32,000 nucleotides of DNA from Flavobacteriaceae bacterium (lineage in GTDB: Bacteria > Bacteroidota > Bacteroidia > Flavobacteriales > Flavobacteriaceae), in contig OZ245049.1 in the NCBI GenBank assembly GCA_965224465.1, forward strand, positions 1,770,001 to 1,802,000. Reading direction: 5' to 3'. Positions within the stretch are counted from its first letter, which is position 1; each line of letters opens with the position of its first letter. The notes under the pieces are model-generated. The model was not told the origin of the DNA. It made no database searches and saw only the letters and a list, made by a program, of their open reading frames with translations. Below are positions 10,285-27,082 of this stretch, piece after piece. The position numbers were made by a program, and so were the translations under genes.

Positions 10285-10304
10285 AAGTACCTGATTTTGT
10301 ATCG

Positions 10305-10344
10305 CAAATATAACTAAATAATTAGTTAAAACTAATTATTTAGT
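10305..10344 (-). promoter_or_regulatory. blaI-like promoter -7 box plus 14-4-14 perfect palindromic operator candidate
   Basis: The minus strand reads TATATTTG at 10312-10305, 21-28 nt before the ATG. Directly upstream is ACTAAATAATTAGT-TAAA-ACTAATTATTTAGT (10313-10344), a perfect dyad. Confidence 0.55.
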
Positions 10345-10424
10345 TAGAAAATGTTTCAACAAGAATTGCACAACAACTATAATTAAACGATTTTTGGCAT
10401 TCATTCAGTATATAAAAAAAAGAG

Positions 10425-10928
10425 ATGGATATATTTTTAGCAATTTCAGGACTACTTCTTACCTTTATAGGAATAATAGGTGCTTTTTTACCCATACTTC
10501 CGGGGCCATTGACTGGTTGGTTCGGTTTATTACTATTACACTTAACAGATACCGTCCCAATGAATTGGGTGTTTTTAGGGATTACACTTGCCGTATCCAT
10601 ACTTATTTGGATATTGGATTATATTATCCCTGCCATGGGAACTAAAAAATTTGGAGGTAGTAAATACGGGGTTATTGGAACAACTGTAGGTCTAATTATA
10701 GGACTGTTCACCCCTATTCCTTTAGGATTCTTAATCGGAGCATTTGTGGGAGCTTTTGTGGGGGAACTAATTTATGATCACAAAGATAAAGCACGAGCTA
10801 CCAAAGCTGCATTTGGCTCATTTCTAGGTTTTTTAACCTCTGCATTTCTTAAATTTAGTGTCGCTATAGTATTTGTAATTTTGTACATCGTTAAATTATG
10901 GGAATATCGCGAGCTGTTTATACTATAG
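10425..10928 (+). CDS. DUF456-type small membrane protein
   Basis: 167 aa with 4-5 TM helices. LPILPGP and GTKKFGGSKYG motifs are characteristic of DUF456. Confidence 0.75.
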   Translation: MDIFLAISGLLLTFIGIIGAFLPILPGPLTGWFGLLLLHLTDTVPMNWVFLGITLAVSILIWILDYIIPAMGTKKFGGSKYGVIGTTVGLIIGLFTPIPLGFLIGAFVGAFVGELIYDHKDKARATKAAFGSFLGFLTSAFLKFSVAIVFVILYIVKLWEYRELFIL

Positions 10929-10974
10929 GTAGTATATTTAGTTGAAACATATAGACCTTGCATAAAGCAGTTAC

Positions 10975-11117
10975 AGCAACAACGTTTCCCAGTGACGGCT
11001 TTGAAATGGAATTATATTTTGTTTTAGCTACACAGGAATTCTAAAGATAGCCTTAGTTATCGTTCTATTTATATCAACAAAAGAAGAAAAACCCATCATT
11101 TTACATCCGTTAATTGG
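10975..11117 (+). mobile_element. MITE copy C (diverged)
   Basis: CAACAACGTTTCCCAGTGACGG...GATAGCCTTAGTTATCGTTCTATTT...ATTTTACATCCGTTAATTGG. Confidence 0.7.
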
Positions 11118-11420
11118 AGCTGTTTATGAAACCCATTCAAAACTGGATACAGAAACCAGAATTTAAGAATTACGAAAAATATTTCCCTTACAATTCCTGA
11201 AAATATTTCCGGTAATAATATTCATTTTTGGAGCGTCAAGCAATGGAATAGAATTAAGAAAATTAGTAGGATTAGATCATTATAAAAGATGCCAGTAGAC
11301 TTAACAGCCTTGCCCCTAATACACAAAGTATACTTTTAAAAAATAGTTTTTAATGTAGAAATAGCATTTTGGAGAATTAACCCCTCCATAAAGGAGATCA
11401 AAAACCTGATTTTTACGCAT

Positions 11421-11524
11421 AAAAAAAGCGTCCCGGTTTTTCGGGAAGCTTTCCATTGGTTTTTTCAAACCGTGACATTTTTCAATGTCAAACAACACAA
11501 CTAAACCAAGAAACTAATCTTGGG
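11421..11524 (-). ncRNA. Candidate orphan small RNA (about 100 nt)
   Basis: Minus-strand -7 box TATATTTG (11536-11529) with a TTG 22 nt upstream. Three hairpins follow: CCAAGA/TCTTGG 11506-11523, TGACAT/ATGTCA 11473-11490, and GGTTT/AAACC. A GC-rich hairpin plus a T7 run (11452-11421) ends it. No credible ORF. Confidence 0.35.
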
Positions 11525-11722
11525 AAGGCAAATATACGCCTATTTCTGAAACCACCAGCAATAATTAACTTTTATTTTTAAAAACAAACAGCTACAAGAT
11601 GCAATATCTTAGGTCGCACACCCCTATTACGGAATAAAGCTATCAAAAAAAAACAATTTTCAGAAATACGTTTAATCTCAAATAGAAATCCAATTTTAAA
11701 GTACATTTTATGATATAGATTG

Positions 11723-11730
11723 TATCTTTG
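11723..11730 (+). promoter_or_regulatory. -7 box TATCTTTG upstream of lysS
   Basis: Matches TAnnTTTG 36 nt before the ATG. Confidence 0.35.
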
Positions 11731-11765
11731 GCAACTATTAGTAAATAACATTAAAATTTAGTAAC

Positions 11766-13469
11766 ATGCAGTTATCAGCATTAGAAATTGTACGAAGAGA
11801 GTCGCTACAGAAACTACGTGACTTGGGCATAAATCCATTTCCAGCAGCAGAATTTAAAACCACCGCAACTATAGCTGCGATAAAGAAGGATTTTGATAAG
11901 TTTGAGGGAAAGAAGGTCATATTAGCTGGACGTTTGATGAGTCGACGTATTATGGGAAAAGCTTCCTTTGCTGAATTAAAAGATGCTTCTGGTCGTATGC
12001 AAATTTACATCAACCGAGATGAAATTGCTCCAGAAGAGGATAAAACGATGTACAATACCGTATTCAAAAAATTATTGGATATGGGAGATATAATAGGAAT
12101 CGAAGGAGAAGTTTTCAAGACCAATGTAGGAGAATCATCTGTTCGAGTAAAAAAATTAACGTTATTAACCAAATCATTAAGACCACTCCCTGTAGTTAAA
12201 ACAGATGCAGATGGTAACGTACACGATGCCTTTTCTGATCCAGAAACTCGCTACCGACAACGCTATGTAGATTTGATTGTAAATGACCACGTTAAGGAAA
12301 CCTTTATCAAACGTTCTAAAATCACGAGTTCTATGCGTGAATTTTTCAACAAAAGAGGATATTTGGAAGTAGAAACACCTATTTTACAACCTATCCCTGG
12401 AGGTGCCGCAGCACGTCCGTTTATCACCCACCACAATTCGTTAAACATGCCATTGTATTTGAGAATAGCCAATGAATTGTATTTAAAAAGATTGATCGTT
12501 GGAGGTTTTGATGCCGTTTTTGAGTTTGCAAAAGACTTTAGAAACGAAGGTATGGATCGCACCCATAATCCAGAATTTACAGTAATGGAATTGTATGTAG
12601 CCTATAAGGATTACAACTGGATGATGAACATGACAGAAGAACTGTTAGAAAAAATATGCATTGACTGTAATGACACTTCTGAAGTAATGATAGGAGAACA
12701 TAAAGTGAGTTTTAAAGCACCTTATGCACGTATTCCTATCTTACAAGCCATTAAAGATCATACAGGATATGACGTTGCAGGATTGGATGAATTCCAATTG
12801 CGAGATATTTGCAGAAAACTAAATATGAACGTGGATGAAACCATGGGCGTAGGAAAATTAATTGATGAATTGTTTGGTGAAAACTGTGAACGTCATTATA
12901 TCCAACCTACTTTTATTACAGATTACCCAAAAGAAATGAGTCCTTTAACCAAGGAGCACCGAGACAACCCCGCTTTGACGGAGCGTTTTGAGCTAATGGT
13001 AAATGGTAAAGAATTGGCAAATGCTTATTCTGAATTGAACGACCCTATAGACCAACGTGAACGTTTTGAAGCACAAATGTCCTTATCAGAAAAAGGAGAT
13101 GACGAAGCTATGTTTATTGACCAAGACTTTATCCGTGCTTTAGAATACGGAATGCCTCCAACCTCTGGTATCGGAATTGGAATAGATCGCTTGGTAATGT
13201 TTATGACCAACAATGCCTCCATTCAAGAAGTATTGTTCTTCCCTCAAATGAAACCAGAAGTACTAGCAACACAAACTGTCGAACTTTCAGACGAAGGTAA
13301 AGCCGTTTTAAAATTAGTAGAAAAAGCGGAAAAAATAGTGTTGGCAGAATTAAAAATAGCTGCTGATTTATCCAATAAAAAATGGGATAAAACCATCAAA
13401 GAATTGACGAAGAACAAGGTTGTTAAAGTAGAAAAAAACAACGAAGAATTGTTTGTAACTTTGGCTTAA
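11766..13469 (+). CDS. lysS: Lysine--tRNA ligase (class II) with about 65-aa C-terminal extension
   Basis: OB-fold N-terminus. Class II motifs include FRNEGMD and GIGIGIDRLVMF, with ELNDP and ERFE nearby. An extra tail follows FFPQMKPE. Confidence 0.95.
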   Translation: MQLSALEIVRRESLQKLRDLGINPFPAAEFKTTATIAAIKKDFDKFEGKKVILAGRLMSRRIMGKASFAELKDASGRMQIYINRDEIAPEEDKTMYNTVFKKLLDMGDIIGIEGEVFKTNVGESSVRVKKLTLLTKSLRPLPVVKTDADGNVHDAFSDPETRYRQRYVDLIVNDHVKETFIKRSKITSSMREFFNKRGYLEVETPILQPIPGGAAARPFITHHNSLNMPLYLRIANELYLKRLIVGGFDAVFEFAKDFRNEGMDRTHNPEFTVMELYVAYKDYNWMMNMTEELLEKICIDCNDTSEVMIGEHKVSFKAPYARIPILQAIKDHTGYDVAGLDEFQLRDICRKLNMNVDETMGVGKLIDELFGENCERHYIQPTFITDYPKEMSPLTKEHRDNPALTERFELMVNGKELANAYSELNDPIDQRERFEAQMSLSEKGDDEAMFIDQDFIRALEYGMPPTSGIGIGIDRLVMFMTNNASIQEVLFFPQMKPEVLATQTVELSDEGKAVLKLVEKAEKIVLAELKIAADLSNKKWDKTIKELTKNKVVKVEKNNEELFVTLA

Positions 13470-13499
13470 TTACAAGGCGAAAATTACATTTTAAAACTT

Positions 13500-13549
13500 A
13501 AGACTTAAAGCAGGTACTCTTATTCCTACCTGCTTTAAGTCTTTTTTTT
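13500..13549 (+). terminator. Strong intrinsic terminator after lysS
   Basis: 17-bp stem AAGACTTAAAGCAGGTA/TACCTGCTTTAAGTCTT followed by a T8 run. Confidence 0.85.
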
Positions 13550-13760
13550 GCAACTAATTTCTATGTTTTTTCGTTTCTAAATAAGTTCAATGCGTTTTTT
13601 TAAACAAAAGGAGACCTTTTAGATAATACAGATAGTGAAGCTAAATGCAGATTAGGGGTACTGAATGGGAAAAACAAGCTAGAAAGCGCTTTGCCTACTT
13701 TATAGTATTTGACAAAAAAGAAGTTACAGGTTCTTATATACATGCCTTTTTTTCAATGTT

Positions 13761-14714
13761 GGCTAACTCGTCTTTTGTCATGTTTTCTGTTTGAATAAAG
13801 TTAATACTTTTTTTATTCAGACAGCGTTGAGTTTACAGTCCCTTAACCTACTATGTAAACTATTGATGTGCTGAATATGATAAGTCCCTTTGACCCGTTG
13901 GTTTTTACTACTGTTTAAAACATGATGCTCTAAATGAAAATCCTTACTAAACCCAGTAAAATTACGGTGTCCATCTGAACAAAATACGGTTCTATTATCT
14001 ACCATGCTTCCGATAGTGTTTTTTATATTACCCTTGGTAATCCTGGACATATTTGTAAATTTAGACACGCATAGTTCTGCTCTATCTTGGCTTGTTAATA
14101 CCGTTGCGTATTCTTTTGTTATACCTGCTCCCTTCTTTTCGGATCTACTTCTGGGAGGTCTATATACACACTTTTTACCTTTTTGACTGTGTAAATAAAA
14201 GGCCTCATCACTCTCGGTGATTCCTTTGAAATGACCTGTGGTTTCTTGGAACATAGCAGACAAAAAACGATGACGCCATCTAAATGCCGTCCCTGGATCT
14301 ATGGAAAGATCCTTTCCTGTTTTAACCAAACTTAAATTCAATTCAAGTGTTTTTAAAAAGGCAGGTATGCGTTGCTTTTTGTGTATCCCAGCTAGCCAAC
14401 TGCCGGTAAATTCAGTAAAAGTACGTTTGCAATCTTTACATTTATAACGCCTGCTGTTTTTATCTACACCTGCTTTTATATAGTGATAGCCATTGCTAAA
14501 AGGGCATTCACCCCTTCTGTAATCTAAAGCATTCCCTCTTATTTTAATAATGTCTACATAACTTCCTGATTTGCAAAGAGACTGAAATTATTTAAGCAAA
14601 ATATCCTGCTTAGTTACATCTAGACAGTCAAAATATTTTAAAATACCTGAACTACCCATCATGATTCTGTTTTTCAGCAAATTACGAGATAAAACGCTAT
14701 TTACAAGTTGAGCC
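13761..14714 (-). mobile_element. Decayed IS1595-family (ISPna2-group-like) insertion sequence
   Basis: Imperfect terminal inverted repeats GGCTAACTCGT (13761) and GGCTCAACTTGT (reverse complement, ending at 14714). The internal transposase reading frame is interrupted. No matching target duplication was seen. Confidence 0.65.
13817..14662 (-). pseudogene. IS1595-family transposase, disrupted
   Basis: The frame from ATG 14662 has an in-frame TAA at 14590-14588 (codon 25). It then continues through a Zn-ribbon (CPF...YKCKDCKRTF), TAFRWRHRFL, ITESDEAFY and HIQHINSLHSRL. It ends early at KLNAV, where family members continue as FNGVATKYL. Confidence 0.7.
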
Positions 14715-14939
14715 AAATTTAACCAAAATCAAATAATGAGGTTGCGTGTAGCTTCTGGTTTGCCAAATATTCAAAAAGGTGATGTTAGTAATTTTAATTT
14801 TTTAATACCACAAAAAGAAGAACAACAAAAAACAGCCACTTTTCTATCATCCATAGATACATCTATAGACATTATGACTAATCAAATTGATGATTCAGTA
14901 ATGTTTAAAAAAGGGTTGTTGCAAAAAATGTTTGTGTAA
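14715..14939 (+). pseudogene. hsdS: Type I R-M specificity subunit (HsdS) C-terminal fragment
   Basis: ...GLPNIQKGDVSNFNFLIPQKEEQQKTATFLSSID...KKGLLQKMFV is the conserved end of an HsdS target-recognition domain plus the C-terminal helix. Homology starts exactly at the IS boundary. Confidence 0.75.
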
Positions 14940-14976
14940 ATTGTCATTCATAATTAAAGATCTATAATTGGTTATA

Positions 14977-15114
14977 TTGCGCCTATATTTTTAATACAAA
15001 GGTCATTTGCGCCTAATAATTTTGCTTTACGCCTGTATTTTATGTATTTTGCGCTTGTATTTTTTAAATTATGTCAAATACCGCTCATTTTTTATTTTTT
15101 GCGCCTACTTTTAA
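14977..15114 (+). repeat. Five direct copies of the TTGCGCCTnTATTTT box
   Basis: Boxes start at 14977, 15007, 15027, 15049 and 15099, giving spacings of 30, 20, 22 and 50 nt. The last box lies inside the annotated 5' end of the fic ORF. Confidence 0.7.
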
Positions 15115-16636
15115 TGGTTTGGTTTTACCTATAAAAGGGTATATGGTAGGTTATACCGCTATTATACATAAGTTACGACTTGCTGTACCTATAAGCAAGC
15201 CTATTGCTATAATTTCATTGAATACAAAACGCCTTAAAAATGATGATTTTTTAGTATTGCCAAAAAGTTATCTAGTAAAAGATGTCGTACAAAATTCAGA
15301 GATTGAATCCTTATATAATCATTTAGTATTTGCATTAAAATATGAAGGTGTTCATTTATTAGTATTTAGCGCTATTACAAAATATTATTCAAAAGATGCA
15401 TTAGTACAATTATTAAGCATAGAACCAACAGGGCAATACTCAAGAAGAATGTGGTTTTTAATAGAATGGCTTTTACAAAAAGAACTAAAAGCGATTCCAA
15501 ATCTTGCTAATAAAAAAAGTTATGTTTCCGTAATAGATACAAAATTGCAATATGCAGTTGCAGGTATAAAGTCATCTCGACATCTGGTCATAAATAATCT
15601 ACCAGGAACAGTCCATTTTTGTCCATTAATCAAAAAGACAGAAAAACTCGAGAATTATATTTTACAAAACTTAAAAAGTAAAAGGATAGAGACGCTAAAA
15701 GGGTTTAAAAAAGACTTATTACAGCGTACAGCAGCCTATTTATTATTAAAAGATTCAAAGGCATCATTTACCATAGAAGGCGAAAGTCCTAAGAGTAAAC
15801 GAACGGCACGTTGGGGAAAAATAATTGGGCAAGCAGGAGCAAAAAGGCTGAACCAAGAAGAATTGATACGGCTACAACAAGAGCTTATAGAAAATTCACG
15901 TTTTGTAGCAATGGGGTTTCGTAAAAAAGGTGGTTTTGTAGGTGAGCATAATCGTACCACTGGCGAACCTATACCAGAGCATATATCTGCAAAATGGCAA
16001 GATATAACACGATTAACAGAAGGTTTAATAGATACCAATACAATTTTAGCCAACAGTGATATAGATGCTGTATTAGCCGCAACAGTCATTGCTTTTGGTT
16101 TTGTTTTTATTCATCCGTTTGAAGATGGTAATGGACGTATTCATCGGTATTTGATTCACCATATTTTAGCAGAAAAAAAGTTTACCCAGCAAGGGCTTAT
16201 TTTTCCTGTTTCTTCTTCTATTTTAGACCATATTGTAGATTATAGAAATGTATTGGAACACTATTCTCACAGTATATTAGATTTTATAGATTGGAAAGAA
16301 ACGAAAGGGCACAATATTGACGTATTAAACAATACGATAGATTATTACCGCTATTTTGACGCTACCAAACAAGCAGAGTTTTTGTATGATTGTGTAAATG
16401 ATACTATAGACAACATCATTCCTCAAGAAATAAATTACCTTCAAAAATATGACGAATTTAAAAATTATGTAGAGGAAGAGTTTGAGATGCCAGATAGTAT
16501 AGTTGCTTTATTAGTTCGATTTTTAGAACAAAATGATAGTAAACTATCAAAAAGAGCAAAAGAAAAAGAATTTTCAATGTTAAATAATGATGAGGTTAAT
16601 CGAATTGAAGAAACGTATCATCAAATTTTCAATTAA
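15071..16636 (+). CDS. Fic family protein (probable AMPylase) with intramolecular inhibitory motif
   Basis: Canonical Fic motif HPFEDGNGRIHR (16112-16147). A SxxxEG inhibitory-helix motif SFTIEG (15764-15781) lies N-terminal to it. 521 aa, though the start could be the internal M24. Confidence 0.85.
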   Translation: MSNTAHFLFFAPTFNGLVLPIKGYMVGYTAIIHKLRLAVPISKPIAIISLNTKRLKNDDFLVLPKSYLVKDVVQNSEIESLYNHLVFALKYEGVHLLVFSAITKYYSKDALVQLLSIEPTGQYSRRMWFLIEWLLQKELKAIPNLANKKSYVSVIDTKLQYAVAGIKSSRHLVINNLPGTVHFCPLIKKTEKLENYILQNLKSKRIETLKGFKKDLLQRTAAYLLLKDSKASFTIEGESPKSKRTARWGKIIGQAGAKRLNQEELIRLQQELIENSRFVAMGFRKKGGFVGEHNRTTGEPIPEHISAKWQDITRLTEGLIDTNTILANSDIDAVLAATVIAFGFVFIHPFEDGNGRIHRYLIHHILAEKKFTQQGLIFPVSSSILDHIVDYRNVLEHYSHSILDFIDWKETKGHNIDVLNNTIDYYRYFDATKQAEFLYDCVNDTIDNIIPQEINYLQKYDEFKNYVEEEFEMPDSIVALLVRFLEQNDSKLSKRAKEKEFSMLNNDEVNRIEETYHQIFN

Positions 16637-16639
16637 AAT

Positions 16640-16950
16640 AACTACACAACCCGAACAAATATTAGAAAATAATTTGCTTTCTCAATTACAAAAATTGGGT
16701 TACAAAAGTGTTGTCATAAAAGATGAAACTGATTTATTGGAAAATCTAAAAAGTCAATTAGAAATTCATAATAAGATAACGCTCTCCTCGCAGGAGTTTA
16801 AGTAGGTATTAAACTATATCAACAAAGGCAATATCTTTGAGCTCGCCAAAATATTAAGAGATCGTGTTCCTTTTATCAATGATAAAGGCGAACACAAAAC
16901 CGTAGAACTCATCAACCAAGTACATTAGTGTAAAAACGAATTTCAGGTTA
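16640..16950 (+). pseudogene. hsdR: Type I restriction enzyme R subunit (HsdR) N-terminal fragment
   Basis: ...EQILENNLLSQLQKLGYKSVVIKDETDLLENLKSQLEIHNKITLSSQEFK*VLNYINKGNIFELAKILRDRVPF...INQVH*CKNEFQVTQQ. There are two in-frame TAG codons (16803-16805 and 16926-16928, the latter where family members have W). It is truncated at MITE copy D. Confidence 0.75.
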
Positions 16951-17100
16951 CCCAACAACATTTCCAAGAGACCGTTTAGAAATGTAATTATATTTTTTAG
17001 CTAAGCGAAAAATGGATGGATAGCCTTGCTATTGTTCTGTTTTTCAAAAATGCTAGCACGTAAAATAAACTATTTATATCGGCTGTTTTGGATTGTAATT
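16949..17100 (+). mobile_element. MITE copy D (GT subfamily), abutting the hsdR fragment
   Basis: TACCCAACAACATTTCCAAGAGACCG...AAATAAACTATTTATATCGGCTGTTTTGGATTGTAATT. Confidence 0.8.
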
Positions 17101-17215
17101 TATTAGGCCATGCCTCTCCGAAAACCACAGAGTTTTACACCAAGACCATCGAAATTAACAATAAAAAAAATATTGGATCGCTTAAAAAGCGAAAAAAATT
17201 GAATACTTTTAACAA
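17100..17215 (+). pseudogene. Tyrosine recombinase C-terminal remnant (copy 1)
   Basis: It reads LLGHASPKTTEFYTKTIEINNKKNIGSLKK, which contains the LLGHxSxxTTxxYT motif with the catalytic Tyr. No upstream recombinase body is present, because the MITE end is immediately 5'. Confidence 0.6.
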
Positions 17216-17325
17216 AAAACCAATACATACCCGAAACTATTATAGACACAACGGAAATAACGTCAAGTTTTGGAAGTTTATTGATGATATATGGGTGTTA
17301 CAAAATATTAGAAAACAAACATAAT

Positions 17326-18513
17326 ATGGCTTGGATTGAAATAAAAGGCTATCCTAACACAAGAATGAAAATCAAACTCCCTGAAGTAGTGGGAATTGAG
17401 GCAATTGAATGTATTACTAACTTAGATAAAGGTTCTGACAATAAAGGTGTTGGAGGAGTTTTAAAAGGTTTTGTTTACGGGAAAGAATACGAATTCAAAA
17501 TAAGCAAATATTACAAAGACCGATTACTTTCTGACAAAATAAAAAAAGAAATAGTTTGGGAATATGAATATGTTAATGATGACGGAGAAGTTATTAATAT
17601 TATTCAAAAAGAATACTCTGGAGATAAATTTCAACTAAAAATAGAAAACTTAAAAATGCTTGGTAAAAATATTTGCATTTATTGTCATTTGAAAAATCAA
17701 GAATCAGGTGCTTCAATAAGTAAATTTTGCCATAATAGATTTAGATTTTTTGACAGGAAAGCAATAGAAAATGAACTAAATAAAAGAAGAAGTAATCCTG
17801 AATTAGCAAATCAAAGTAGAACACCAACTTGTGGAATGGCTTCCATATTCTATATTTTAGCAAAAAAAGATTTTGATAACTATCAAAACTTCATACTTGA
17901 TTTACATCAAACCGGTATTGCTAAATGTAACTCATATGAAGTTGATGTTTCTAAATGTGATCATTTATTAGAAATAAATCCCGTTTTAGACATTTTATAC
18001 CCAGCATTGTATGGTAAAAAAATGCCATATATTGATTGGATTCCTTTTTCTTGTATTAGAGACTTAGAAAATAATTTACCTATAAGTTATAATGGAAAAA
18101 TGAGCCAATCTTCATTAGATGAGTTTTCTGGAGCTACATTACCCCACGAGATAGAAAAATTAATGAAAAAGCTTTTAGGTTTCAAAAAAATTATAAATGA
18201 CACTAATCTAGTTTTCAATAAAGATAGCCAAGCTTTTGGTGAGATATCTGCTAGAGAATTAAAGAAATTACAAGATTTATATTTAGACGGATATAATATA
18301 TGCTTATTTATTAACACAAATATGATAAGCAATAAAGAGTCTGGAATTTTGTCGACAATTGAACATTGGGTTGTTTTTGAGGGAATTATTGGTGGAACAA
18401 TTAGTTGGGATGAATATGATTTTAAAGTATTTACTTGGGGTGCTATAGAAGATGTTATTGTTAATCCTGAATCATTCAGGTCAAATTATTATGGTTATGT
18501 TGCAGGTAAATAA
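17326..18513 (+). CDS. Papain-fold (C39-like) Cys/His peptidase-domain protein, candidate effector/toxin
   Basis: The start is set at ATG 17326 because homology with the cassette-2 leader ends exactly there. There is no signal peptide. Q-x5-TCGMAS has the candidate nucleophile Cys at 17830-17832, and IEHWVVFEG has the His at 18364-18366, followed by D/E residues. The N-terminal ~140 aa form a separate domain predicted here to be beta-rich. Confidence 0.6.
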   Translation: MAWIEIKGYPNTRMKIKLPEVVGIEAIECITNLDKGSDNKGVGGVLKGFVYGKEYEFKISKYYKDRLLSDKIKKEIVWEYEYVNDDGEVINIIQKEYSGDKFQLKIENLKMLGKNICIYCHLKNQESGASISKFCHNRFRFFDRKAIENELNKRRSNPELANQSRTPTCGMASIFYILAKKDFDNYQNFILDLHQTGIAKCNSYEVDVSKCDHLLEINPVLDILYPALYGKKMPYIDWIPFSCIRDLENNLPISYNGKMSQSSLDEFSGATLPHEIEKLMKKLLGFKKIINDTNLVFNKDSQAFGEISARELKKLQDLYLDGYNICLFINTNMISNKESGILSTIEHWVVFEGIIGGTISWDEYDFKVFTWGAIEDVIVNPESFRSNYYGYVAGK

Positions 18514-18922
18514 AAAACTTATTTATATTTTTTTAATCATACAATTATTAAGTTGTAATAAAAAAAATAAGAATTGTGATTTACAAGATGCTATTCTTCA
18601 AAGAATAATTTTAAAAAATTTTAAAAAATCTAGTTTAAAAACCCTTTCTATAAATAAAGAAAAACAAGATTATCTTTTAAAAACAGACCCTAATAGTTCT
18701 TATGCTTACATTCAACTAACTCCTCTTATTTTTAGAGAATTGAAAAAAGGGAAAACTTTGTTTACTATTAATGACTCATTGAATTATACTATTTCTGAGA
18801 TAAAAACAGACTCTATTATGAGACAAACTATGGTAAATGAATTTAAAGATTGTATTTTGGTGTCCTATAAAATTAATGATTCTTTAATTTATCATCATCA
18901 GAAAATAATTATAAATCGATAA
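18497..18922 (+). CDS. Small lipoprotein, candidate cognate immunity protein
   Basis: MLQVNKKLIYIFLIIQLLSCNKK has a signal peptide with lipobox LLSC. The start overlaps the upstream gene's stop (18511-18513) by 17 nt. The 142 aa are very AT-rich. Confidence 0.55.
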   Translation: MLQVNKKLIYIFLIIQLLSCNKKNKNCDLQDAILQRIILKNFKKSSLKTLSINKEKQDYLLKTDPNSSYAYIQLTPLIFRELKKGKTLFTINDSLNYTISEIKTDSIMRQTMVNEFKDCILVSYKINDSLIYHHQKIIINR

Positions 18923-18933
18923 AAACGTTTTGT

Positions 18934-19203
18934 AATCGAGTAGACGGCTCCAACAAACATAGCTGGAAGGCGCCTCTCACACCACTGTACATACGAGAAC
19001 TTCGCTCATTCATTTAATTACAAGTATAAAAACACTTCTAATTCTCATGAACCTATACGGAGGTGTAAAAAATTAAAGTCTTTATATTATTGACATCCCA
19101 TTTCTTATTGATTTTTACCGAAAAATCATGAGGTAACGTAAAAAAACAAGGAGACAACAGTTTTAACAAAAAGTATTTCGAATTGATTTTTTCGAATTCA
19201 ATA
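18934..19203 (+). repeat. Conserved inter-cassette 3' module, copy 1
   Basis: Aligns with 21749-21814 plus 22117-22357, for example AATCGAGTAGAC..CTCCAACAAACATAGCTGG.AGGCGCCTCTCACACCACTGTACATACGAGA and ACTTCGCTCATTCATTTAATTA... It starts 11 nt after the cassette stop codon. No ORF. Confidence 0.8.
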
Positions 19204-19357
19204 ACACCAAATACATTTCCAAGTGACGGATTAGAAATGTAATTATATTTTTTTAGCTAAGCGAAAAATGGATAGATAGCCATCGCTATCGTTCTATTTT
19301 TTAACAACGCTAGCACGTAAAATAAACTATTTATATCTGTTGTTTTGGATTGTAATT
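19204..19357 (+). mobile_element. MITE copy E (GT subfamily)
   Basis: ACACCAAATACATTTCCAAGTGACGGATTAGAAATGTAATTATA...GATAGCCATCGCTATCGTTCTA...TGTTTTGGATTGTAATT. Confidence 0.85.
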
Positions 19358-19446
19358 TATTAGGCCATGTCTCTCCAAATACAACTGAGGTTTACACGAG
19401 GACCATTGTCATAAACAAAAAGAATATAACACTCTTGAAAATTTAA
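19357..19446 (+). pseudogene. Tyrosine recombinase C-terminal remnant (copy 2)
   Basis: It reads LLGHVSPNTTEVYTRTIVINKKNITLLKI*. It has the same junction with the MITE end as copy 1. Confidence 0.6.
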
Positions 19447-19584
19447 AAAAATTAGATATCTTTAACAAGAAAATAACTAGCCCCTCATCCAATTAATAGG
19501 GATAACGGATTAGCGTCAACTTTAAGACTGGTGTTTTCGATATATGGGAGTTGTTGTAATACATTACAGAAAACAATATACTAA

Positions 19585-21738
19585 ATGAAAAAAAGCGAGA
19601 AAATTATAATTACAACTATTCTATCTCTTTTTCTTGGAGTTTTAATATTCGGACATCATTTTACTACCCCGCTATTAATTAGCACATCTATTCTAAGTCT
19701 TTGCTACATCGTAGGTGGATTTTATTTTTTAAATTATCAAAATGACAAAGACAAACTAAATATAATAGCAGGAATAATTTTAGGCTCTGCTCTTGGTGTT
19801 TTCACATTTACGTTATGGCTTCCAGTATCTGTTTTCCGTAAGATTTTAGTATCCATAAATATCATGTTTTCGATTCTATTAATTGGATTTTGGATTTATA
19901 AAAAACATAATTTTAATAAAAAACTTAAATATATACTTTTCAGGTCTATAACTATAGCTGTTTTTACTTCATTTTTCTCTTTATCTAGCGTTCATTTTAA
20001 CGCATACAGGAATCTATTATTAAGAATGCTTACTCCTGATTCTAATCTGTCTAATAACTTATTAATGTTTGAAAAAACAGGTGAGTATAACGACTTTATG
20101 AATTTAAAAAAATATGACTTAGCTATTGTTAAAGCCAAAGAAGCAATCTTATGTGGCAAAAAACGGAAAGATTATGACACTTTATATTATCAAGATTTCT
20201 CTGGAACTTATAAATATTTATCAAATGCTTATATAGCAAATGGAGATAAGTTTTTCGATAAAAATGACTTTAAGAATGCTTTATCTAATTATATAAAAGC
20301 AGACAGCGTTTTAACACATAAAGAACATAAGCCTAAATACGTGAAATCAACAAAAACATATATTTACTGGAATCATTATAATCTATTATTAACATATAAT
20401 AAGCTTTTAGATTATGACAATTATGATTCTGAACTTGATTATTTAGTTGATAATTATTTAAAAGTTAAAGACACTTGTGATATCGACTATCATCATATAT
20501 TAAAAAACGCATCTAGTAATTATTACACTCGCTCATATTACAGTGATGCAATAGACCTAAATAAAATGTCTTTAATTATTTTAAATCAAGACAGTGTTAA
20601 TAATATAGATTTATTTAAGAGCACCTATGTTCGATTAATTAAAAATTATTTAATTACTGACAGCACCGAAACCGCAAAAAAATATTTAAAAAAATATGAA
20701 AAAATAACTTCAAATAACGACTGTCGATATCTGTTTTACAAAACTAGAATTCTCCAAAAAGAAAACATTAAAGAAGCTTTAGAGATTGCTAAAAAAACTA
20801 GCGAATGTTTTGAACAAGCAAACAAACCTTTAAGTTTGTATGCTTCAAATCTATTATTACTAAAATTAGAACTTGAAAACTCAAATTACAAGAACTTTGA
20901 AAAGCAACTAAAAATTACTCAAGATTTAATTTCACAAACTAATAATAAAAGATATAATCAATCATTTATAGATGAATTATTAGGTTATTATAATTCTATA
21001 AAGGGTAATTATATTAACTCAAAAAAGTACTATATAAAAGCTCTTAATAATCCTAAAAATTTTGAAGGAGTCCAAAAAAAATCACTTGAATTAAAAATAG
21101 CACAAATAAATGACGAGCTAGATATTAATTATGATAAAAAGAGCCTTAACTTAAATATTCTGAATTTTTTGTCAGAGCATGAGACCAATTATCCAAGCAC
21201 TACGACTTTTCATAACAATTTAGGGAACATTAACATTGGATTCAATTCAAAACTATCTGATTCTATTTTTAAAGTAACGATTGAATGCCATAAAAGATTT
21301 GGAATAAACAAATCTGCTCAATTAGGAATCGCTTACAATGGTCTAGCAACAACTCAATTACATCGTAAAAAGTACAAAAAATCTGATTCCTTATACTTAA
21401 TTGCTATTAAAAACCTAGATAAATTTTATGGTAAACAACAAAATGTAAATCAACTTATATGTTATTTAAATATTATTGAGTTAAAGTTAAATCAAAAAAA
21501 ATATGATACAGGTTTAGATTTCTTAGAAAAAGCCCGCTTAACGAAGCTAAATTGCTTCAATAAAGAAGTAACAATATATGATGCATATCTACTAAATTTA
21601 GAAGGGGATCTAATTAGAGTGAACAAAAAAAACAAAACTCTATCAACTGACAAATACAATCAAGCATTAGATATAGCAAAGAATTATTTTAATGATACTC
21701 ATAGATTTATAAAAAAACTCAAGAATAAAATACAATAA
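19585..21738 (+). CDS. Multi-pass membrane protein with long TPR-like helical-repeat C-terminal region
   Basis: 717 aa. About 5 hydrophobic helices lie in the first ~140 aa. Y/N/K-rich repeats of about 34-40 aa with A/L/Y periodicity follow. The sequence is extremely AT-rich and no catalytic motif was recognised. Confidence 0.6.
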   Translation: MKKSEKIIITTILSLFLGVLIFGHHFTTPLLISTSILSLCYIVGGFYFLNYQNDKDKLNIIAGIILGSALGVFTFTLWLPVSVFRKILVSINIMFSILLIGFWIYKKHNFNKKLKYILFRSITIAVFTSFFSLSSVHFNAYRNLLLRMLTPDSNLSNNLLMFEKTGEYNDFMNLKKYDLAIVKAKEAILCGKKRKDYDTLYYQDFSGTYKYLSNAYIANGDKFFDKNDFKNALSNYIKADSVLTHKEHKPKYVKSTKTYIYWNHYNLLLTYNKLLDYDNYDSELDYLVDNYLKVKDTCDIDYHHILKNASSNYYTRSYYSDAIDLNKMSLIILNQDSVNNIDLFKSTYVRLIKNYLITDSTETAKKYLKKYEKITSNNDCRYLFYKTRILQKENIKEALEIAKKTSECFEQANKPLSLYASNLLLLKLELENSNYKNFEKQLKITQDLISQTNNKRYNQSFIDELLGYYNSIKGNYINSKKYYIKALNNPKNFEGVQKKSLELKIAQINDELDINYDKKSLNLNILNFLSEHETNYPSTTTFHNNLGNINIGFNSKLSDSIFKVTIECHKRFGINKSAQLGIAYNGLATTQLHRKKYKKSDSLYLIAIKNLDKFYGKQQNVNQLICYLNIIELKLNQKKYDTGLDFLEKARLTKLNCFNKEVTIYDAYLLNLEGDLIRVNKKNKTLSTDKYNQALDIAKNYFNDTHRFIKKLKNKIQ

Positions 21739-21748
21739 TAACGCACTA

Positions 21749-22357
21749 CAATCGAGTAGACAACTCCAACAAACATAGCTGGCAGGCGCCTCTCACACCA
21801 CTGTACATACGAGAGGAGAGTTTTATTTTAAAAAAACCAGTGGAGCTGATAACGTATAGCTACTTGTAAAAAGGTATTGAAAAATAATTTTAGTAGTATT
21901 GATAATGTTACATCGGAGGATGTCTTTTATGCAGTATATATGTTCAAAAGCTGCGAGAATAGGAACGACCTTAGGAGGGACGCGCAGTTTTGGATATGGT
22001 TTTTAAGAAGGCTTTTTTGCCGCCTTAAAAAATACCTCATAAAAGTCTCCTTTTTTGGTTCGTTTTTTGGAGAAGCAAAAAATGAACATACAGGATAAAA
22101 TGACGTCAATGGTAGAACTTCGCTCATTCATTTAATTATAAGTATAAAAACACTTCTAATTCTCATGAACCTATACGGAGGTATAAAAAATTAAAGTCTT
22201 TCTATTATTGACATCCAATTTCTTATTGATTTTTACCGAAAACCCATGAGGTAACGTAAAAATAAGGAGTCAACAGTTTTAACAAAAAGCACCTGATTTT
22301 TTACCGACAAAACGGTTAATAAAAAGTATTTAGAATTGATTTTGTCGAATTCGTGTA
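21749..22357 (+). repeat. Conserved inter-cassette 3' module, copy 2 (carries 302-bp and 37-bp insertions)
   Basis: Same sequence as 18934-19203 but interrupted at 21815-22116 and 22290-22326. It starts 11 nt after the cassette stop codon. Confidence 0.8.
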
Positions 22358-22513
22358 ACACCAAATACATTTCCAAGTGACGGATTAGAAATGTAATTAT
22401 ATTTTTTAGCTAAGCGAAAAATGGATGGATAGCCATCGCTATCGTTCTATTTTTTTAACAACGCTCACACGTAAAATAAACTATTTATACCGGCTGTTTT
22501 GGATTGTAATTGG
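22358..22513 (+). mobile_element. MITE copy F (GT subfamily)
   Basis: ACACCAAATACATTTCCAAGTGACGGATTAGAAATGTAATTATA...GGCTGTTTTGGATTGTAATTGG. Confidence 0.85.
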
Positions 22514-22674
22514 GACAAGAAGCTAAACCAAAGAAAAAGCATAAAAACCAACCAGCTCAGAGACTTTACAAATAAACAATTCCTCAAGAAATATTTTAGA
22601 GAGAAAAGACATACACGCGTCTAAATGGCTCGATTATTGAAGTGTGAGCAGGATATAATGAATTTATTTTTATC

Positions 22675-23895
22675 ATGAAAAAACTGCTATATTTTCTATT
22701 CCTAACCCCTTTTATTCTTGTAACATGTAAGTTAGAAAAGGAAACATCTATAAAAAAAAGGGCTACACATGTGGGTACATACCAAGGTATTTTACCCTGT
22801 GCCGATTGTCTAGGAATTAAAACAACCATCGAACTCACAAAAAACAACTGTTATGTTTATACTACAGAATACCTAGATAAAAAACCAAATATTTTTGTAG
22901 AAAAAGGAAATTACACCTTAGACAAAGACATTCTTAATCTCCCTTTAAGTAATCAGGAAATTCTACACCTAAAAATTAAAGAAAACCAACTGATATACTT
23001 AGGCAGAGATACCATTGTAAACACAGGGTCTTTGGCTGCCTTTTACATCTTAAAAAAGCAAGTATCGAATAACACTACGTTTAGTGGTAGTTACAAAACA
23101 GAAACTAAAACAGGAACTAGCCCCCTAACATTAAGTATAGAAAAAAAAGACGACACATATTCCGTACATATAACAGGTACTAAAACAAAAGACACCTGTA
23201 ATTTTTACGGACAAGGATTTGTTAAAAACGACACCCTTTTCTTGAGTAAATCTCCAAAGAACAAACGCATTTCAATAGCAATAACAGCAGTCAAAAACAA
23301 CAATGGTCTGCACATATCCTCAATAAAGCCTGAGGGACAATTTGCTTTGACGCACTACTGCGACGACAAAATATCCATCGCAGGAACGTACCTGAAATTT
23401 GACGAAGCCTTTCTTATAACAAAAAAACAAGTCGGAATGTTCAATCCACAAATGAGCATTGAAGACATTCTAAACAGACTTCCTGCTGATCAAGTTAAAA
23501 AAAAAGTTGGTCATGGAGAGTTTAAAGATGATCTTTATGATGATTATGAAATTTACGACACCGAGCACAAACTATTAGTGACCATAAGTCCAAAAAAACA
23601 AGGAGATACCCAACAAAAAATAAACCGTATCACTATTCAAAGTCAGTTGTATCAAACAGTCAAAGGAATTAATAAAAACACTACTTATGGAACTGTTGAA
23701 CAAGCGTATTTTATAGACAAAATAGTCCCAACAAGAACACATATCATTTTAGAAATAAAAAGTATAAATGCCTGGCTAAGCATCTCTAAATCAAAATTAG
23801 AAAAAGGATGGTGGGATGCAAACAAAAAAACCATTGACACCCATAAAATCCCAAAATCAGCAACAATAGATCAATTCTACATTTGGTGGAATTAA
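22675..23895 (+). CDS. Lipoprotein with NlpE-like N-terminal domain
   Basis: Signal peptide with lipobox LVTC. YQGILPCADCLGIKTTIEL resembles the NlpE N-terminal CxxC motif. The remaining ~300 aa are uncharacterised. Confidence 0.6.
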   Translation: MKKLLYFLFLTPFILVTCKLEKETSIKKRATHVGTYQGILPCADCLGIKTTIELTKNNCYVYTTEYLDKKPNIFVEKGNYTLDKDILNLPLSNQEILHLKIKENQLIYLGRDTIVNTGSLAAFYILKKQVSNNTTFSGSYKTETKTGTSPLTLSIEKKDDTYSVHITGTKTKDTCNFYGQGFVKNDTLFLSKSPKNKRISIAITAVKNNNGLHISSIKPEGQFALTHYCDDKISIAGTYLKFDEAFLITKKQVGMFNPQMSIEDILNRLPADQVKKKVGHGEFKDDLYDDYEIYDTEHKLLVTISPKKQGDTQQKINRITIQSQLYQTVKGINKNTTYGTVEQAYFIDKIVPTRTHIILEIKSINAWLSISKSKLEKGWWDANKKTIDTHKIPKSATIDQFYIWWN

Positions 23896-24060: not shown

Positions 24061-24163
24061 CAATTACAATCCAAAATAAACTATCTAAATAGATTATTTT
24101 ACGTTCTAGCGTTGTTAAAAAATAATTCCATTTCTAAACCATCACTTGGAAATGTATTTGATA
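24061..24163 (-). mobile_element. MITE copy G (103 bp, internally deleted form, inverted orientation)
   Basis: The reverse complement reads CAAATACATTTCCAAGTGATGGTTTAGAAATGGAATTATTTTTTAACAACGCTAGAACGTAAAATAA...TTTTGGATTGTAATTG. It lacks the ~49-nt central block TAGCTA..GATAGCC..GTTCTATTTT. Confidence 0.8.
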
Positions 24164-24292
24164 TAATTAGTGCTTTGCGAGCAATTCAAAAAGACCTACA
24201 ATTACCACGTCCCTTTAACAAATAATTAAGAGTCTACACGCACACTTTTTTTTAAATTGCATCTATAAAAATCTGATATCAAATAAAGCAAT

Positions 24293-26880: not shown

Positions 26881-26928
26881 AAAACAAATGGGTCTTAAAA
26901 TTATCCATTCCAACCCCTTATATTACTA

Positions 26929-27082
26929 ATACCAACATTTTCAAGTCACGGTTTAGAAATGGAATTATTTTATGTTTTAGCTAGGCGGAAAATGGATGGA
27001 TAGCCTTATTGTTCTATTTTTTAACAACGCTAGAACGTAAAATAAACTATTTGTATTGGTCATTTTGAATTGTAATTGGTAT
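26929..27082 (+). mobile_element. MITE copy H (GG subfamily), flanked by TA on both sides
   Basis: ATACCAACATTTTCAAGTCACGG...GTTCTATTTTTTAACAACGCTAGAAC...CATTTTGAATTGTAATTGGTAT. Confidence 0.8.

Follow-up and report, generated by a model that had tools for sequence, protein, structure and literature searches.

Remains of a probable integron-like gene-capture system around two gene cassettes in a Flavobacteriaceae genome

In a Flavobacteriaceae genome (contig OZ245049.1), two unrelated coding segments lie in tandem, framed by copies of the same non-coding sequence. This arrangement raises the question of whether a dedicated capture system placed the segments there, and what the shared sequence is. 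We analysed the array in a window, which is a stretch of 32,000 nucleotides of this contig. A sequence-only reading of the window had described the shared sequence as a 0.65-kb inter-cassette module in an architecture that it did not recognise as a described system.

Extent and content of the two cassettes

The repeats framing the two segments lie where that reading had placed them, and their similarity is far above chance as judged by z scores against shuffled sequences. The MITE-like repeat is 91% identical between copies A and B and 96% between B and C (z > 44), the recombinase tails of A and B are 77% identical over ~115 nt (z = 19) and the distal leaders 67% (z = 7.3), and the post-stop blocks P and Q are each 95% identical between copies B and C. 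Copy A has no post-stop block, and copy C has neither tail nor leader. As had been noticed, the cassette DNA is more AT-rich than its surroundings, with 24-29% GC in the array and 33-39% in the flanks. The interval between lysS and the metalloprotease gene, which the sequence-only reading had proposed to compare among strains, indeed differs in content: it measures 10.8 kb here, whereas the corresponding 3.2 kb of the closest relative hold unrelated genes.

The boundaries of the exchanged DNA had been put at the start codon and at a point just past the stop codon. Homology is indeed lost in the coding regions, of which the first 120 nt show no similarity (z = -0.3), but the alignment does not run up to the ATG: significant A-B similarity stops 29-31 nt 5' of it, at GGGTG|TT (17297|17298 and 19553|19554). 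The last 30 nt before the ATG match only marginally between A and B (z = 1.9; 16 of 300 shuffles equal), and because the same 30 nt travel with the cassettes in other genomes, they are part of the cassettes. Downstream, homology resumes after the stop codon as claimed, though after 12 nt (18935 and 21751) and not after 11; the ~11 nt following each stop show no similarity between cassettes 1 and 2, and the shared A at 18934/21750 is the final cassette base. Each cassette extends from G|TT to ...TA|AC, and these boxes take the place of the start and stop codons as boundaries.

Cassette 1 (17298-18934, plus strand) starts with TTACAAAA and ends in the R''-like remnant AACGTTTTGTA|(AC), and cassette 2 (19554-21750, plus strand) starts with TTGTAATAC and ends in AACGCACTACA|(AC). 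The first and last ~10 nt of each cassette are reverse complements. For cassette 1, the reverse complement of the 3' end (AC restored as in locus L005) reads GTTACAAAAC against GTTACAAAAT at the 5' end, a match at 9 of 10 positions (the first nine); for cassette 2, GTTGTAGTGCGT stands against GTTGTAATACAT. Copies in other genera have 85-88% DNA identity and identical breakpoints: cassette 1 is 85% identical to loci L002-L004 over exactly 17298-18935 in unrelated contexts, and cassette 2 is 87.7% identical to Lacinutrix algicola (L021) over exactly 19554-21751 in another context.

The first ORF of cassette 1 (17326-18513, plus strand, 395 aa) has homologues that carry PF17642 (TssD/Hcp) or PF14107 (DUF4280; PAAR) or sit inside T6SS loci; one of them (P0009) is flanked by Tle1-type effectors on one side and by tssC/tssF on the other. 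A gene of 139-145 aa is always found 3' of these homologues, as is the lipoprotein-like second ORF here (18452/18497-18922, plus strand). From these relationships, cassette 1 is predicted to be a T6SS-type effector (the toxin) and immunity pair, so that the toxin-cassette idea of the sequence-only reading holds for this cassette only. Cassette 2 encodes a 717-aa protein with N-terminal TM segments and TPR (19585-21738, plus strand), which is not a toxin module and has homologues of 79-86% amino acid identity in Winogradskyella and Tenacibaculum. An effector and immunity pair that moves between genomes and is also found in T6SS loci or fused to Hcp/PAAR recalls the orphan effector-immunity and polymorphic-toxin arrays of Rhs, CDI and T6SS islands. 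In contrast to those, the array offers no shared coding 'handle' for homologous replacement, its boundaries are non-coding boxes and its second cassette is not a toxin module.

Identity of the shared non-coding sequence

The 0.65-kb module is a composite of mobile-element debris around two real cassettes and not one functional unit. Its parts are a minus-strand 3' stub of a group II intron (domains V-VI), a ~160-nt repeat, the last ~35 codons of a recombinase gene and a putative attI-like leader that ends in GATATATGGGT G|TT.

The dead recombinase end noticed by the sequence-only reading is real. The lineage A tail (17101-17213, plus strand; ~35 codons containing LLGHASPKTTEFYTKTIEINNKK) is Xer/IntI-related (phmmer E = 4e-9), shares 73-91% nucleotide identity with the 3' ends of ~80 intact 368-aa genes and is 79% identical to locus L064 over 214 nt. 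The lineage B tail (19358-19446, plus strand; LLGHVSPNTTEVYTRTIVINKKN and the stop) is 80% identical to the 3' end of the intact gene of L029. These two 3' remnants of ~35 C-terminal codons are all that the window holds of the recombinase, and no intact gene was found in it. Most of the 80 metagenome loci retrieved carry an intact gene of 368-372 aa, L027 has a longer remnant (Pfam Phage_integrase, 51.6 bits), and an intact relative on a Chryseobacterium plasmid (L108) is named 'site-specific tyrosine recombinase/integron integrase' by PGAP. The proteins combine Phage_int_SAM_4 with Phage_integrase and match integron-integrase models in part. TIGR02249 scores 169-185 bits (cutoff 265) with the intact relatives, in two stretches that leave model positions ~180-241 unmatched, which is where the IntI-specific insertion lies. 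The alignment to IntI4 (2a3v) is likewise split; no such insertion was found in either alignment, and the scores are below every NCBIfam cutoff.

Downstream of the tails lie leader A (17214-17297, plus strand), ending in GATGATATATGGGTG|, and leader B (19447-19553, plus strand), ending in GATATATGGGAGTTG|. An ending GATATA(T/C)GGGT G|TT is conserved in the window (twice), L064, L027 and L029, with cassette-specific sequence after GGGTGTT, and alignment with these relatives suggests G|TT as the crossover point. The leader is probably an attI-like site at which the first cassette joins, and tail and leader together can be read as what is left of a recombinase gene and its attI-like site.

The post-stop segment is structured, with a hairpin that shows compensatory changes relative to locus L001. 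Copy B (18935-19205, minus strand) comprises domain VI, domain V and ~130 nt of decayed internal sequence; it has no 5' end, and the intron 5'-end motif sought in it is absent. Copy C consists of domain VI with the 3' half of domain V (21751-21814, minus strand; 95% identical to copy B and 77% to L020) and a second part (22114-22359, minus strand; 95% to copy B, with one ~24-nt indel). Between them lies a 299-nt insertion (21815-22113), a repeat that is present neither in copy B nor in L001 and is 86% identical over 190 nt to L029 2155-2342(-). The pattern AATCRAGTAGAC..GCCTCTCACACCAC retrieved loci L018-L020, and L020 has a full minus-strand intron (Rfam Intron_gpII 42.2 bits with a gathering score of 40, D1D4-3 135.6 bits, and a match to D1D4-1), whose encoded protein has RVT_1 and GIIM (RT/maturase) and no endonuclease domain. 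Window positions 18934-18995 are 79% identical to L020 122-184 (E = 5e-7), and the copy B stub is 77% identical to L001 over 168 nt. An Rfam search of the window stubs gave no group II intron match, and the link to L020 comes from blastn/nhmmer. Domain V of copy B has a ~55-nt hairpin in place of its loop, a variant common to the window and MAG NORP129. By its likeness to L020, the segment can be identified as an antisense group II intron truncated to its 3' end.

One junction, ...A|ATCGAGTAG, is shared by both window copies and by L057, L106, L108 and L005. In the relatives, the introns are antisense in an ...A|AC box, on the bottom strand, between gene and attC-like site, and many copies are ORF-less or truncated derivatives. 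The group IIC-attC introns of integrons are endonuclease-less, insert into the site on its bottom strand, against the direction of cassette transcription, and so come to lie between gene and site (Leon, Quiroga, Centron & Roy, PMC3001079). The likeness to these introns (S.ma.I2 and relatives) lies in all these traits and is drawn from insertion site and domains; the differences are the Flavobacteriia host, the ...A|AC box of a non-IntI system as target and the many ORF-less or truncated copies. An endonuclease-less intron lineage probably homes into the bottom strand of sites at ...A|AC, which places introns between gene and site and antisense to the cassettes.

The ~160-nt repeat, called a MITE and part of the module in the sequence-only reading, turned out to be a genome-wide repeat with at least nine copies in the window. 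Copy A (16950-17100, plus strand) has a truncated hsdR N-terminal fragment directly to its left, copy B (19206-19357, plus strand) aligns with the other copies, and copy C (22360-22512, plus strand) ends the array with no recombinase tail; further copies lie outside the array at about 6673-6835, 9780-9836 (partial), 10971-11115, 24061-24168(-), 26924-27078 and 31953-31988(-). Alignment of nine copies shows defined ends (ACCAAATACATTTCC ... GGATTGTAATTG), with neither TIR nor TSD obvious. Internal hairpins form when the repeat is folded, and the syntenic regions of the closest relative do not contain it; interspersed intergenic repeat is the better name for it.

Arrays and attC-like sites in relatives

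In the metagenome loci and on the Chryseobacterium plasmid, the recombinase gene heads an array of co-oriented ORFs downstream of it, and recombinase and cassettes are on one strand in all loci examined and in the window. The cassettes are separated by ~150-nt palindromic attC-like sites (AAC...GTT), for which HMM searches gave 59 and then 98 matches, all on the recombinase strand. AAC and GTT are invariant, and the sites have a conserved internal hairpin. Compensatory changes were found in 8 of 13 pairs of the arm helix, of which 91.4% of the cells are paired, a value reached in none of 500 shuffles (slid controls 29-54%). The complementarity of the ends is cassette-specific (9.07/12, against 4.69 ± 0.55 in shuffled pairings and 3.9/12 within one module), and the bottom strand folds better as ssDNA in all three modules folded. 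The cargo of the Flavobacteriia arrays is mostly of unknown function and includes RM systems, Mrr-STAND, a beta-lactamase-fold protein, LRR proteins and a T9SS-tailed protein; multi-gene cassettes occur (effector with immunity; a C-R-M restriction-modification system).

The window holds no complete attC-like site, and the module HMM has no match in it. Its sites were destroyed by the intron, and what is left are their first ~12 nt as R''-like remnants, which together with the cassette 5' ends fit the model. In L002, L005 and L021, the sites behind these cassettes (the 'X element') follow the same boundary logic, also with no match to the module HMM. On the strength of the ~12-nt remnants, the leader and the relatives, the window can be assigned to the same system. 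The integron-type cassette logic proposed by the sequence-only reading is supported by boundaries, end complementarity and the arrays of relatives, more strongly than from the window alone.

Two probable dead platforms and the alternatives

We consider it highly probable that two tandem platforms of a Flavobacteriia gene-capture system, integron-like (rAID-like) in kind, have decayed in this region; the lack of the IntI-specific insertion in the recombinase is in line with this reading. The intact system, as found in relatives, consists of a ~368-aa Xer/IntI-related recombinase, a same-strand attI-like leader (...GGGT G|TT) and co-oriented cassettes, each ending in a ~150-nt imperfect palindrome that starts with ...YAAC and ends with ...AAC GTT. 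As the ~12 nt that open a cassette (after G) and the ~12 nt that close it (before AAC) are reverse complements, an excised circle would rebuild one fully paired site. Recombination would accordingly take place at G|TT, with a single strand in folded form as the most likely substrate. Folded-strand recombination is proposed by analogy, because the recombinase scores below the NCBIfam cutoffs and is without the insertion on which IntI depends to recognise attC. In the window, two platforms with different recombinase lineages would have kept one cassette each. Both attC-like sites would have been struck by the intron, which later lost its 5' part, and of both recombinase genes the last ~35 codons would remain, joined to the genome-wide repeat. 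Homologous recombination among the debris would then have spread a block of intron stub, repeat and first ~12 nt of the tail, giving the 0.65-kb module. The join between tail and repeat falls on one and the same nucleotide in both platforms, for which a crossover in the conserved tail or a target specificity of the repeat has to be assumed in addition. Without a recombinase acting in trans, the array would now be unable to move.

A sub-case of this explanation, possible though we give it somewhat less than even weight, is that the region simply belongs to the rAID family, with the recombinase family, intergenic motifs and interbacterial-defence cargo of Bacteroidales rAID-1. The rAID of gut Bacteroidales contain AT-rich genes, repetitive conserved intergenic sequences and antagonism-linked cargo and have 'hallmarks of integrons' (Ross et al. 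2019, 10.1101/471110; 10.1101/2025.05.03.651265), and the likeness lies in these features as described there; rAID are further marked by a recombinase homologous to BF9343_RS08045 and by cargo of orphan immunity genes. The operational definition of rAID names a tyrosine recombinase at the head, short genes in one orientation, conserved motifs between them and low GC. The last three are found here, in a window array of two cassettes of which the first is T6SS-related, and the recombinase is intact in relatives and present in the window as two 3' remnants. However, recombinase homologues of >50% identity are reported only from Bacteroidales (10.1101/471110), whereas the present loci belong to Flavobacteriales (marine metagenomes, the Flavobacteriaceae genome and the Chryseobacterium plasmid). 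Their cargo is much broader and not mainly immunity genes, and cassette 1 retains a complete effector and is not an orphan immunity gene. Added here are crossover boxes (AAC|GTT), a complementarity of ends that is specific to each cassette, a hairpin of ~150 nt that shows covariation and the targeting of sites by introns; we found none of these described for rAID in the accessible text of 10.1101/471110 and 10.1101/2025.05.03.651265.

Homologous recombination between abundant repeats (MITE-like, intron stubs) in a variable island, with sharp boundaries due to selection on coding sequence, would dispense with a site-specific system and is improbable as the whole explanation. In its favour, the repeat is very frequent, the interval as a whole is an exchangeable island and both recombinases are dead. 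Between copies B and C, intron stub and repeat together are 95-96% identical, which points to a recent duplication or to gene conversion, and homologous recombination probably shaped the last steps. Yet this leaves unexplained that both cassettes start directly behind the G of a conserved GGGTGTT, that the two ends of each are reverse complements, that copies in other genera without these repeats have identical breakpoints, and that the tails come from a recombinase family that heads arrays with attC-like sites.

Very unlikely is the remnant of a classical integron with IntI and canonical attC. Integron and array share a recombinase, an adjacent attI-like site (in the window twice, L064, L027 and L029, its function predicted from position), imperfect palindromes at the cassette 3' end bounded by R''/R' boxes (...AAC / GTT...) with G|TT crossover position, better folding of the bottom strand and cargo of mostly unknown function with defence and toxin genes (CALINs included in the comparison); the recombinase domains, partial model matches and the PGAP name also agree with it. 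Against it stand the TIGR02249 scores and the split IntI4 alignment. The IntI integrase has an additional domain (Messier & Roy 2001, as cited in PMC4889954), which the intact relatives lack. The sites are longer and more uniform than attC, with the conserved internal hairpin and end complementarity of ~12 nt, and cassettes may hold several genes. In integrons the integrase is usually divergent from the cassettes, whereas here it is co-directional in all loci examined and in the window.

That the whole 0.65-kb module is a functional recombination or regulatory unit, or the post-stop element a plus-strand structured RNA (3'-UTR, sRNA), is hardly credible: the repeated order of parts and the structured, compensated hairpin fit it, but each part has its own identity and distribution, the ~150-nt sites of intact arrays contain none of the four parts and copy C tolerates the 299-nt insertion, which largely refute the former, and no plus-strand Rfam family matches the latter.

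The locus departs from the sequence-only reading in that its architecture probably matches the published definition of rAID in Bacteroidales and parallels integrons with IIC-attC introns. We found no description of such a system for marine Flavobacteria in the literature searched, and the arrays point to integron-like gene capture being common in them. With confidence evenly divided, we propose that Flavobacteriia possess a widespread IntI-independent cassette system, in which an Xer-like recombinase without the IntI insertion would capture circles at G|TT through ~150-nt folded attC-like sites, and which has its own lineage of site-homing group II introns. If true, this would hold the key to the mechanism of rAID; alternatively, integron recombination would have been invented a second time in parallel, or would have an ancestor-like relative in this system.

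Cassettes framed by a composite repeat

Two unrelated coding segments in the window are framed by three copies (A, B and C) of a composite repeat, an arrangement that the sequence-only reading had described essentially correctly. Pairwise alignment gave identities far above those of shuffles: the ~160-nt repeat, there called a MITE, is 91% identical between copies A and B and 96% between B and C, the recombinase tail is 77% identical between A and B (z = 19) and the distal part of the attI-like leader 67% (z = 7.3). The post-stop blocks of B and C are 95% identical. The upstream homology had been said to run to the ATG; it covers the repeat, the tail and the distal leader, but in the final ~30 nt ahead of each ATG the match against shuffles was only marginal (z = 1.9). 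In the same alignments no similarity was found between the coding starts of the two cassettes or in the ~11 nt after the two stops. Replacement via a shared coding handle, the logic of polymorphic-toxin arrays that had also been offered, was rejected because the two coding regions lack similarity. The array DNA is AT-rich, as had been noted (24-29% GC compared with 33-39% in the flanking genes).

Cassette 1 (17298-18934) contains two genes. Homologues of ORF1 are fused to TssD/Hcp (PF17642) or DUF4280/PAAR-like domains, others lie between Tle1-type effectors and tssC/tssF, and a 139-145-aa gene is always found 3' of them. Because of these fusions, neighbours and the constant partner, cassette 1 is predicted to be a T6SS-type effector and immunity pair. 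Its DNA recurs in three metagenome contigs (L002-L004) at 85% identity over exactly 17298-18935 and in unrelated context. Cassette 2 (19554-21750, ORF 19585-21738) encodes a 717-aa protein with TM and TPR segments that has homologues of 79-86% amino acid identity in Lacinutrix, Winogradskyella and Tenacibaculum; at the DNA level it is 87.7% identical to Lacinutrix algicola (L021), and the match is confined to 19554-21751. As the matches in independent genomes are confined to the cassettes, both have the same kind of breakpoints, at about -30 and +12. The cassettes are real mobile units, and the cassette-type logic proposed from the sequence was right.

A paralogue of the cassette 1 effector (P0002, 395 aa, 80% identical) is present elsewhere in the same genome, on the contig that carries the window. 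ORF2 is present in the protein collection, and ORF1 is absent from it under either start. A broken integrase adjoining the cassette 1 homologue in L002 was set aside as a member of another family (C-terminus ..TRHKSLEGLENYL..). In L021, a terminator hairpin (AACAGCCAAAACATAT.TTGTTTTGGCTGTTTT) is duplicated on both flanks of the whole insert.

Upstream of the array lies a decayed defence island (13817-16948), comprising an IS1595-type transposase remnant (13817-14341, minus strand), an HsdS fragment (14736-14939), a 521-aa Fic-domain gene (15071-16636) and an N-terminal HsdR fragment (16587-~16948) cut off by the ~160-nt repeat. Downstream, an NlpE-domain lipoprotein gene (22675-23895) is part of the variable island, since it is missing from the closest relative, and the region upstream of this gene (within 22513-23895) contains ..ACATACACGCGTCTAAATGG, with a loose likeness to the 3' end of the attC-like sites described below. 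It was weighed as a third cassette; its ends match at only ~6/12 positions, and it may be a degraded one. A 100-nt tRNA-Lys(ttt) called by ARAGORN inside the cassette 2 ORF (20851-20950, minus strand) is implausible and almost certainly a spurious call in AT-rich coding DNA. Rfam searches of the window, including a 321-nt slice, gave nothing relevant at gathering and E-value thresholds.

Intron stubs and interspersed repeats between the cassettes

The ~0.65-kb module that had been taken as a unit consists of debris: an antisense intron stub, a genome-wide repeat and a recombinase remnant. At least nine copies of the ~160-nt repeat, earlier regarded as part of the module, are scattered over ordinary intergenic DNA of the 32-kb window (6673-6835, 9780-9836, 10971-11115, 16950-17100, 19206-19357, 22360-22512, 24061-24168 on the minus strand, 26924-27078 and 31953-31988 on the minus strand). 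This corresponds to ~1 copy per 3.5 kb, with one orientation predominating. Alignment of the copies showed defined ends and no obvious terminal inverted repeats. The repeat has internal hairpins (ACATTTCC..GAAATGT and GATAGCC..GCTATC), and a short variant of ~108 nt exists. It was not found in the syntenic DNA of the closest relative, the metagenome-assembled genome NORP129 (L001), it matched no Rfam family, and a 21-mer from it had no match in viral contigs. The repeat is genome-wide and not a component of any cassette system.

The block following the cassettes (18935-19205 and, interrupted, 21751-22359) was considered as a plus-strand structured RNA or att site, a reading dropped once full introns had been found. 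An exact 22-mer of the block matched only NORP129 among GTDB representative genomes. In Aquimarina muelleri (L009), L005 and NORP129 a profile of it identified copies 10-20 nt past the stops of numerous accessory genes that share one orientation, and a degenerate pattern identified three contigs of the viral collection, one of which (L020) has a complete intron, encoded on the opposite strand. Rfam scored this intron at 42.2 bits for Intron_gpII (gathering score 40), 135.6 for group-II-D1D4-3 and 46.6 for D1D4-1, and its 420-aa ORF contains RVT_1 and GIIM domains without an endonuclease domain. Window positions 18934-18995 are 79% identical to domains V-VI of the L020 intron (E = 5e-7). From this likeness we take the post-stop element to be a group II intron stub that lies antisense to the cassettes and retains the 3' end. 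In the window copies a ~55-nt hairpin, shared with NORP129, replaces the domain V loop, which accounts for the failure of Rfam to detect these copies. The intron 5' end was searched for and has no match in the window. The stub of copy C carries a 299-nt insertion at the domain V loop (21815-22113); 190 nt of it are 86% identical to intergenic DNA of L029 (2155-2342, minus strand), so that it is probably another small mobile repeat.

In A. muelleri (CP196409) a ~13-kb array (7400-20800) lies between pterin-4a dehydratase and yebC, with at least six cassette ends that each carry an intron 3' stub (TssD-toxin with immunity, HigBA, HTH with Fic, transglutaminase and others). At least two of these stubs retain the intron 5' end as well and are ORF-less mini-introns. 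No recombinase was found within 21 kb, and a 41-nt tandem repeat in five copies is present at 7000-7269. For annotation, where sequence directly after stops is conserved in these genomes, it frequently belongs to an antisense intron stub.

The recombinase family and its intact arrays

Among 1.8 billion representative proteins the 41-aa tail matched five short ORFs (best E = 4e-9); the best match lies inside an Xer-like pseudogene with a decayed 5' part, and the leader after it resembles that of R_A, the remnant of copy A (17101-17213). Queried by themselves, the 32-41-aa tails had no match in Pfam or PDB, a 20-mer of the tail had none in viral contigs and a 23-mer spanning the repeat-tail junction had none in metagenomes. 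An alignment-based metagenome scan yielded 80 loci, most with an intact recombinase gene of 368-372 aa, so that the dead recombinase end recognized by the sequence-only reading has intact counterparts. R_A is 73-91% identical at the nucleotide level to the 3' ends of intact genes and 79% identical to L064 over 214 nt, leader included; R_B, the remnant of copy B (19358-19446), is 80% identical to L029. The intact proteins contain Phage_int_SAM_4 and Phage_integrase domains and score below the cutoffs of both the XerA model (183-195 bits, cutoff 220) and the integron integrase model (169-185 bits, cutoff 265), whose IntI-specific insertion region they leave unmatched.

Located ~130-150 nt upstream of the intact recombinase, and always divergent from it, is a conserved 115-120-aa ORF (L037, L039, L065, L091-L093 and others; for example L065 6758-7114, minus strand, no Pfam match), which might serve the platform in regulation or as an accessory factor. 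A tyrosine recombinase on Acinetobacter plasmids (H5-H12) shares 52% identity with the Flavobacteriia recombinase over residues 133-360 of the latter, which is unexpectedly close for such distant hosts. Upstream of the decayed recombinase of L027, positions 588-764 encode a 58-aa peptide with a double-glycine-type leader (..NELKNINGG/KYYYG..), followed by a small secreted protein; this looks like a bacteriocin-like cassette.

Downstream of the intact recombinase lie arrays of co-oriented ORFs. About 21 contigs stop within ~220 nt of the recombinase stop codon, as expected if the downstream content varies between strains. Modules of ~150 nt are repeated between the ORFs, and HMMs built from them found 59 and then 98 sites, every one on the recombinase strand; the same HMMs had no match in the window, L002, L005 or L021. 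In an alignment of 35 modules the start (..AAC A..) and the end (..C GTT..) are invariant. The module arms form 13 pairs (97% paired), with compensatory changes in 8 of them, and the whole structure is 91.4% paired, a value reached by none of 500 shuffles, with slid controls at 29-54%. In three of three modules the bottom strand folds better as single-stranded DNA. When the 12 nt after GTT at the cassette start were compared with the 12 nt that precede AAC at the cassette end, taken in reverse complement, the match was 9.07/12, compared with 4.69 ± 0.55 for shuffled pairings (maximum 6.79 in 2000) and 3.9/12 for the two boxes within one module. We regard this as the most telling evidence on the arrays; it is the signature predicted for units that circularise and recombine at G/TT.

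A second conserved 3' module type, here called the X element, follows the same cassettes in other genera (L002 9830-10000, 11600-11806 and 13429-13500; L005 11590-11790; L021 10155-10440). Its sequence (..AAC A..GTATA.AAAAA.ATAGGGCTTTT..) includes a GCCAAAT..ATTTGGC hairpin, and it has the same boundary logic as the main attC-like type, yet is missed by the HMM of that type.

Origin of the locus and relation to known systems

The window agrees with the structure of these intact arrays base for base. The leaders of window copies A and B and of L064, L027 and L029 align through ...GATATA(T/C)GGGT GTT and diverge beyond. Cassette 1 starts with TTACAAAA (17298) and ends with ..CGTTTTGTA (18934), and its uninterrupted versions read GTTTTGTAAC AAGGTATA in L005 and GTTTTGAAAC ATTGTATA in L002. 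Cassette 2 starts with TTGTAATAC (19554) and ends with ..CGCACTACA (21750), the uninterrupted version in L021 being CACTACAAC. The site of an unrelated cassette in L091 starts with AACGCACTACAACATTGTGTATAATTAATTGC, near-identical to that of cassette 2 in L021. Comparison of interrupted and uninterrupted ends places the intron inside an R''-like (..AAC) box at ...A/AC. The same junction was found in L057, in L106, where the cassette is a C-protein/endonuclease/methylase system with ends that are complementary too, and in a Chryseobacterium plasmid (NZ_CP041688 of Chryseobacterium sp. SNU WT5), which has the order recombinase, six co-oriented genes and antisense ltrA.

R_A is nearer to L064, and R_B to L029, than the two are to each other, which points to two different platforms as their sources. 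The repeat junction and the first ~12 nt of the tail (TTAGGCCATG) are nevertheless common to both and set them apart from their relatives, and the blocks of intron stub and repeat in copies B and C are 95-96% identical. The simplest history we infer for the module has two steps. Introns would have homed into both sites, with loss of their 5' parts and a repeat-associated truncation of a recombinase gene; the block would then have spread as homologous recombination or gene conversion acted on the conserved tail and on the debris. Comparison of the lysS-metalloprotease interval with NORP129, proposed as a check on cassette content, revealed different content: synteny is kept on both sides and the metalloprotease is 87% identical, whereas the interval is 10.8 kb in the window and 3.2 kb, with unrelated genes, in NORP129. 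The locus most likely represents two dead platforms, side by side, of an integron-like system that also resembles rAID (recombinase-associated acquired interbacterial defence); among marine Flavobacteriia this system is common and apparently still active.

Group IIC-attC introns enter attC on the bottom strand, against the direction of cassette transcription, and come to lie between the gene and that site (PMC3001079); the intron here is likewise antisense and separates gene from site. The rAID systems of Bacteroidales are defined by short genes of one orientation with conserved motifs between them and by a tyrosine recombinase. They show 'hallmarks of integrons' (10.1101/471110; 10.1101/2025.05.03.651265) and have been reported solely in that order (10.1101/471110). 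Integrons in Bacteroidota have been reported by surveys (PMC8618304). No definition of rAID recombination sites was found in the available texts, and no description of the Flavobacteriia system, its sites or its introns in the searchable literature, the coverage of which is incomplete.

Integron-type recombination is thought to need an IntI-specific domain that reads folded attC hairpins. The arrays described here carry the full set of sequence signatures expected of this mechanism, namely AAC/GTT boxes, covarying hairpins, circle-compatible ends and even dedicated site-homing group II introns, yet their recombinase is without that domain. The interest of the locus is substantial and lies chiefly in its consequences. 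If this reading is true, the origin and minimal requirements of cassette capture become directly testable, the rAID defence arrays of gut Bacteroidales would gain a concrete mechanistic model, and the old proposal that attC-homing introns help to create cassettes would gain new material. It would also account for the transfer of toxin/immunity, restriction-modification and other accessory genes, as exactly bounded units, between marine Flavobacteriaceae.
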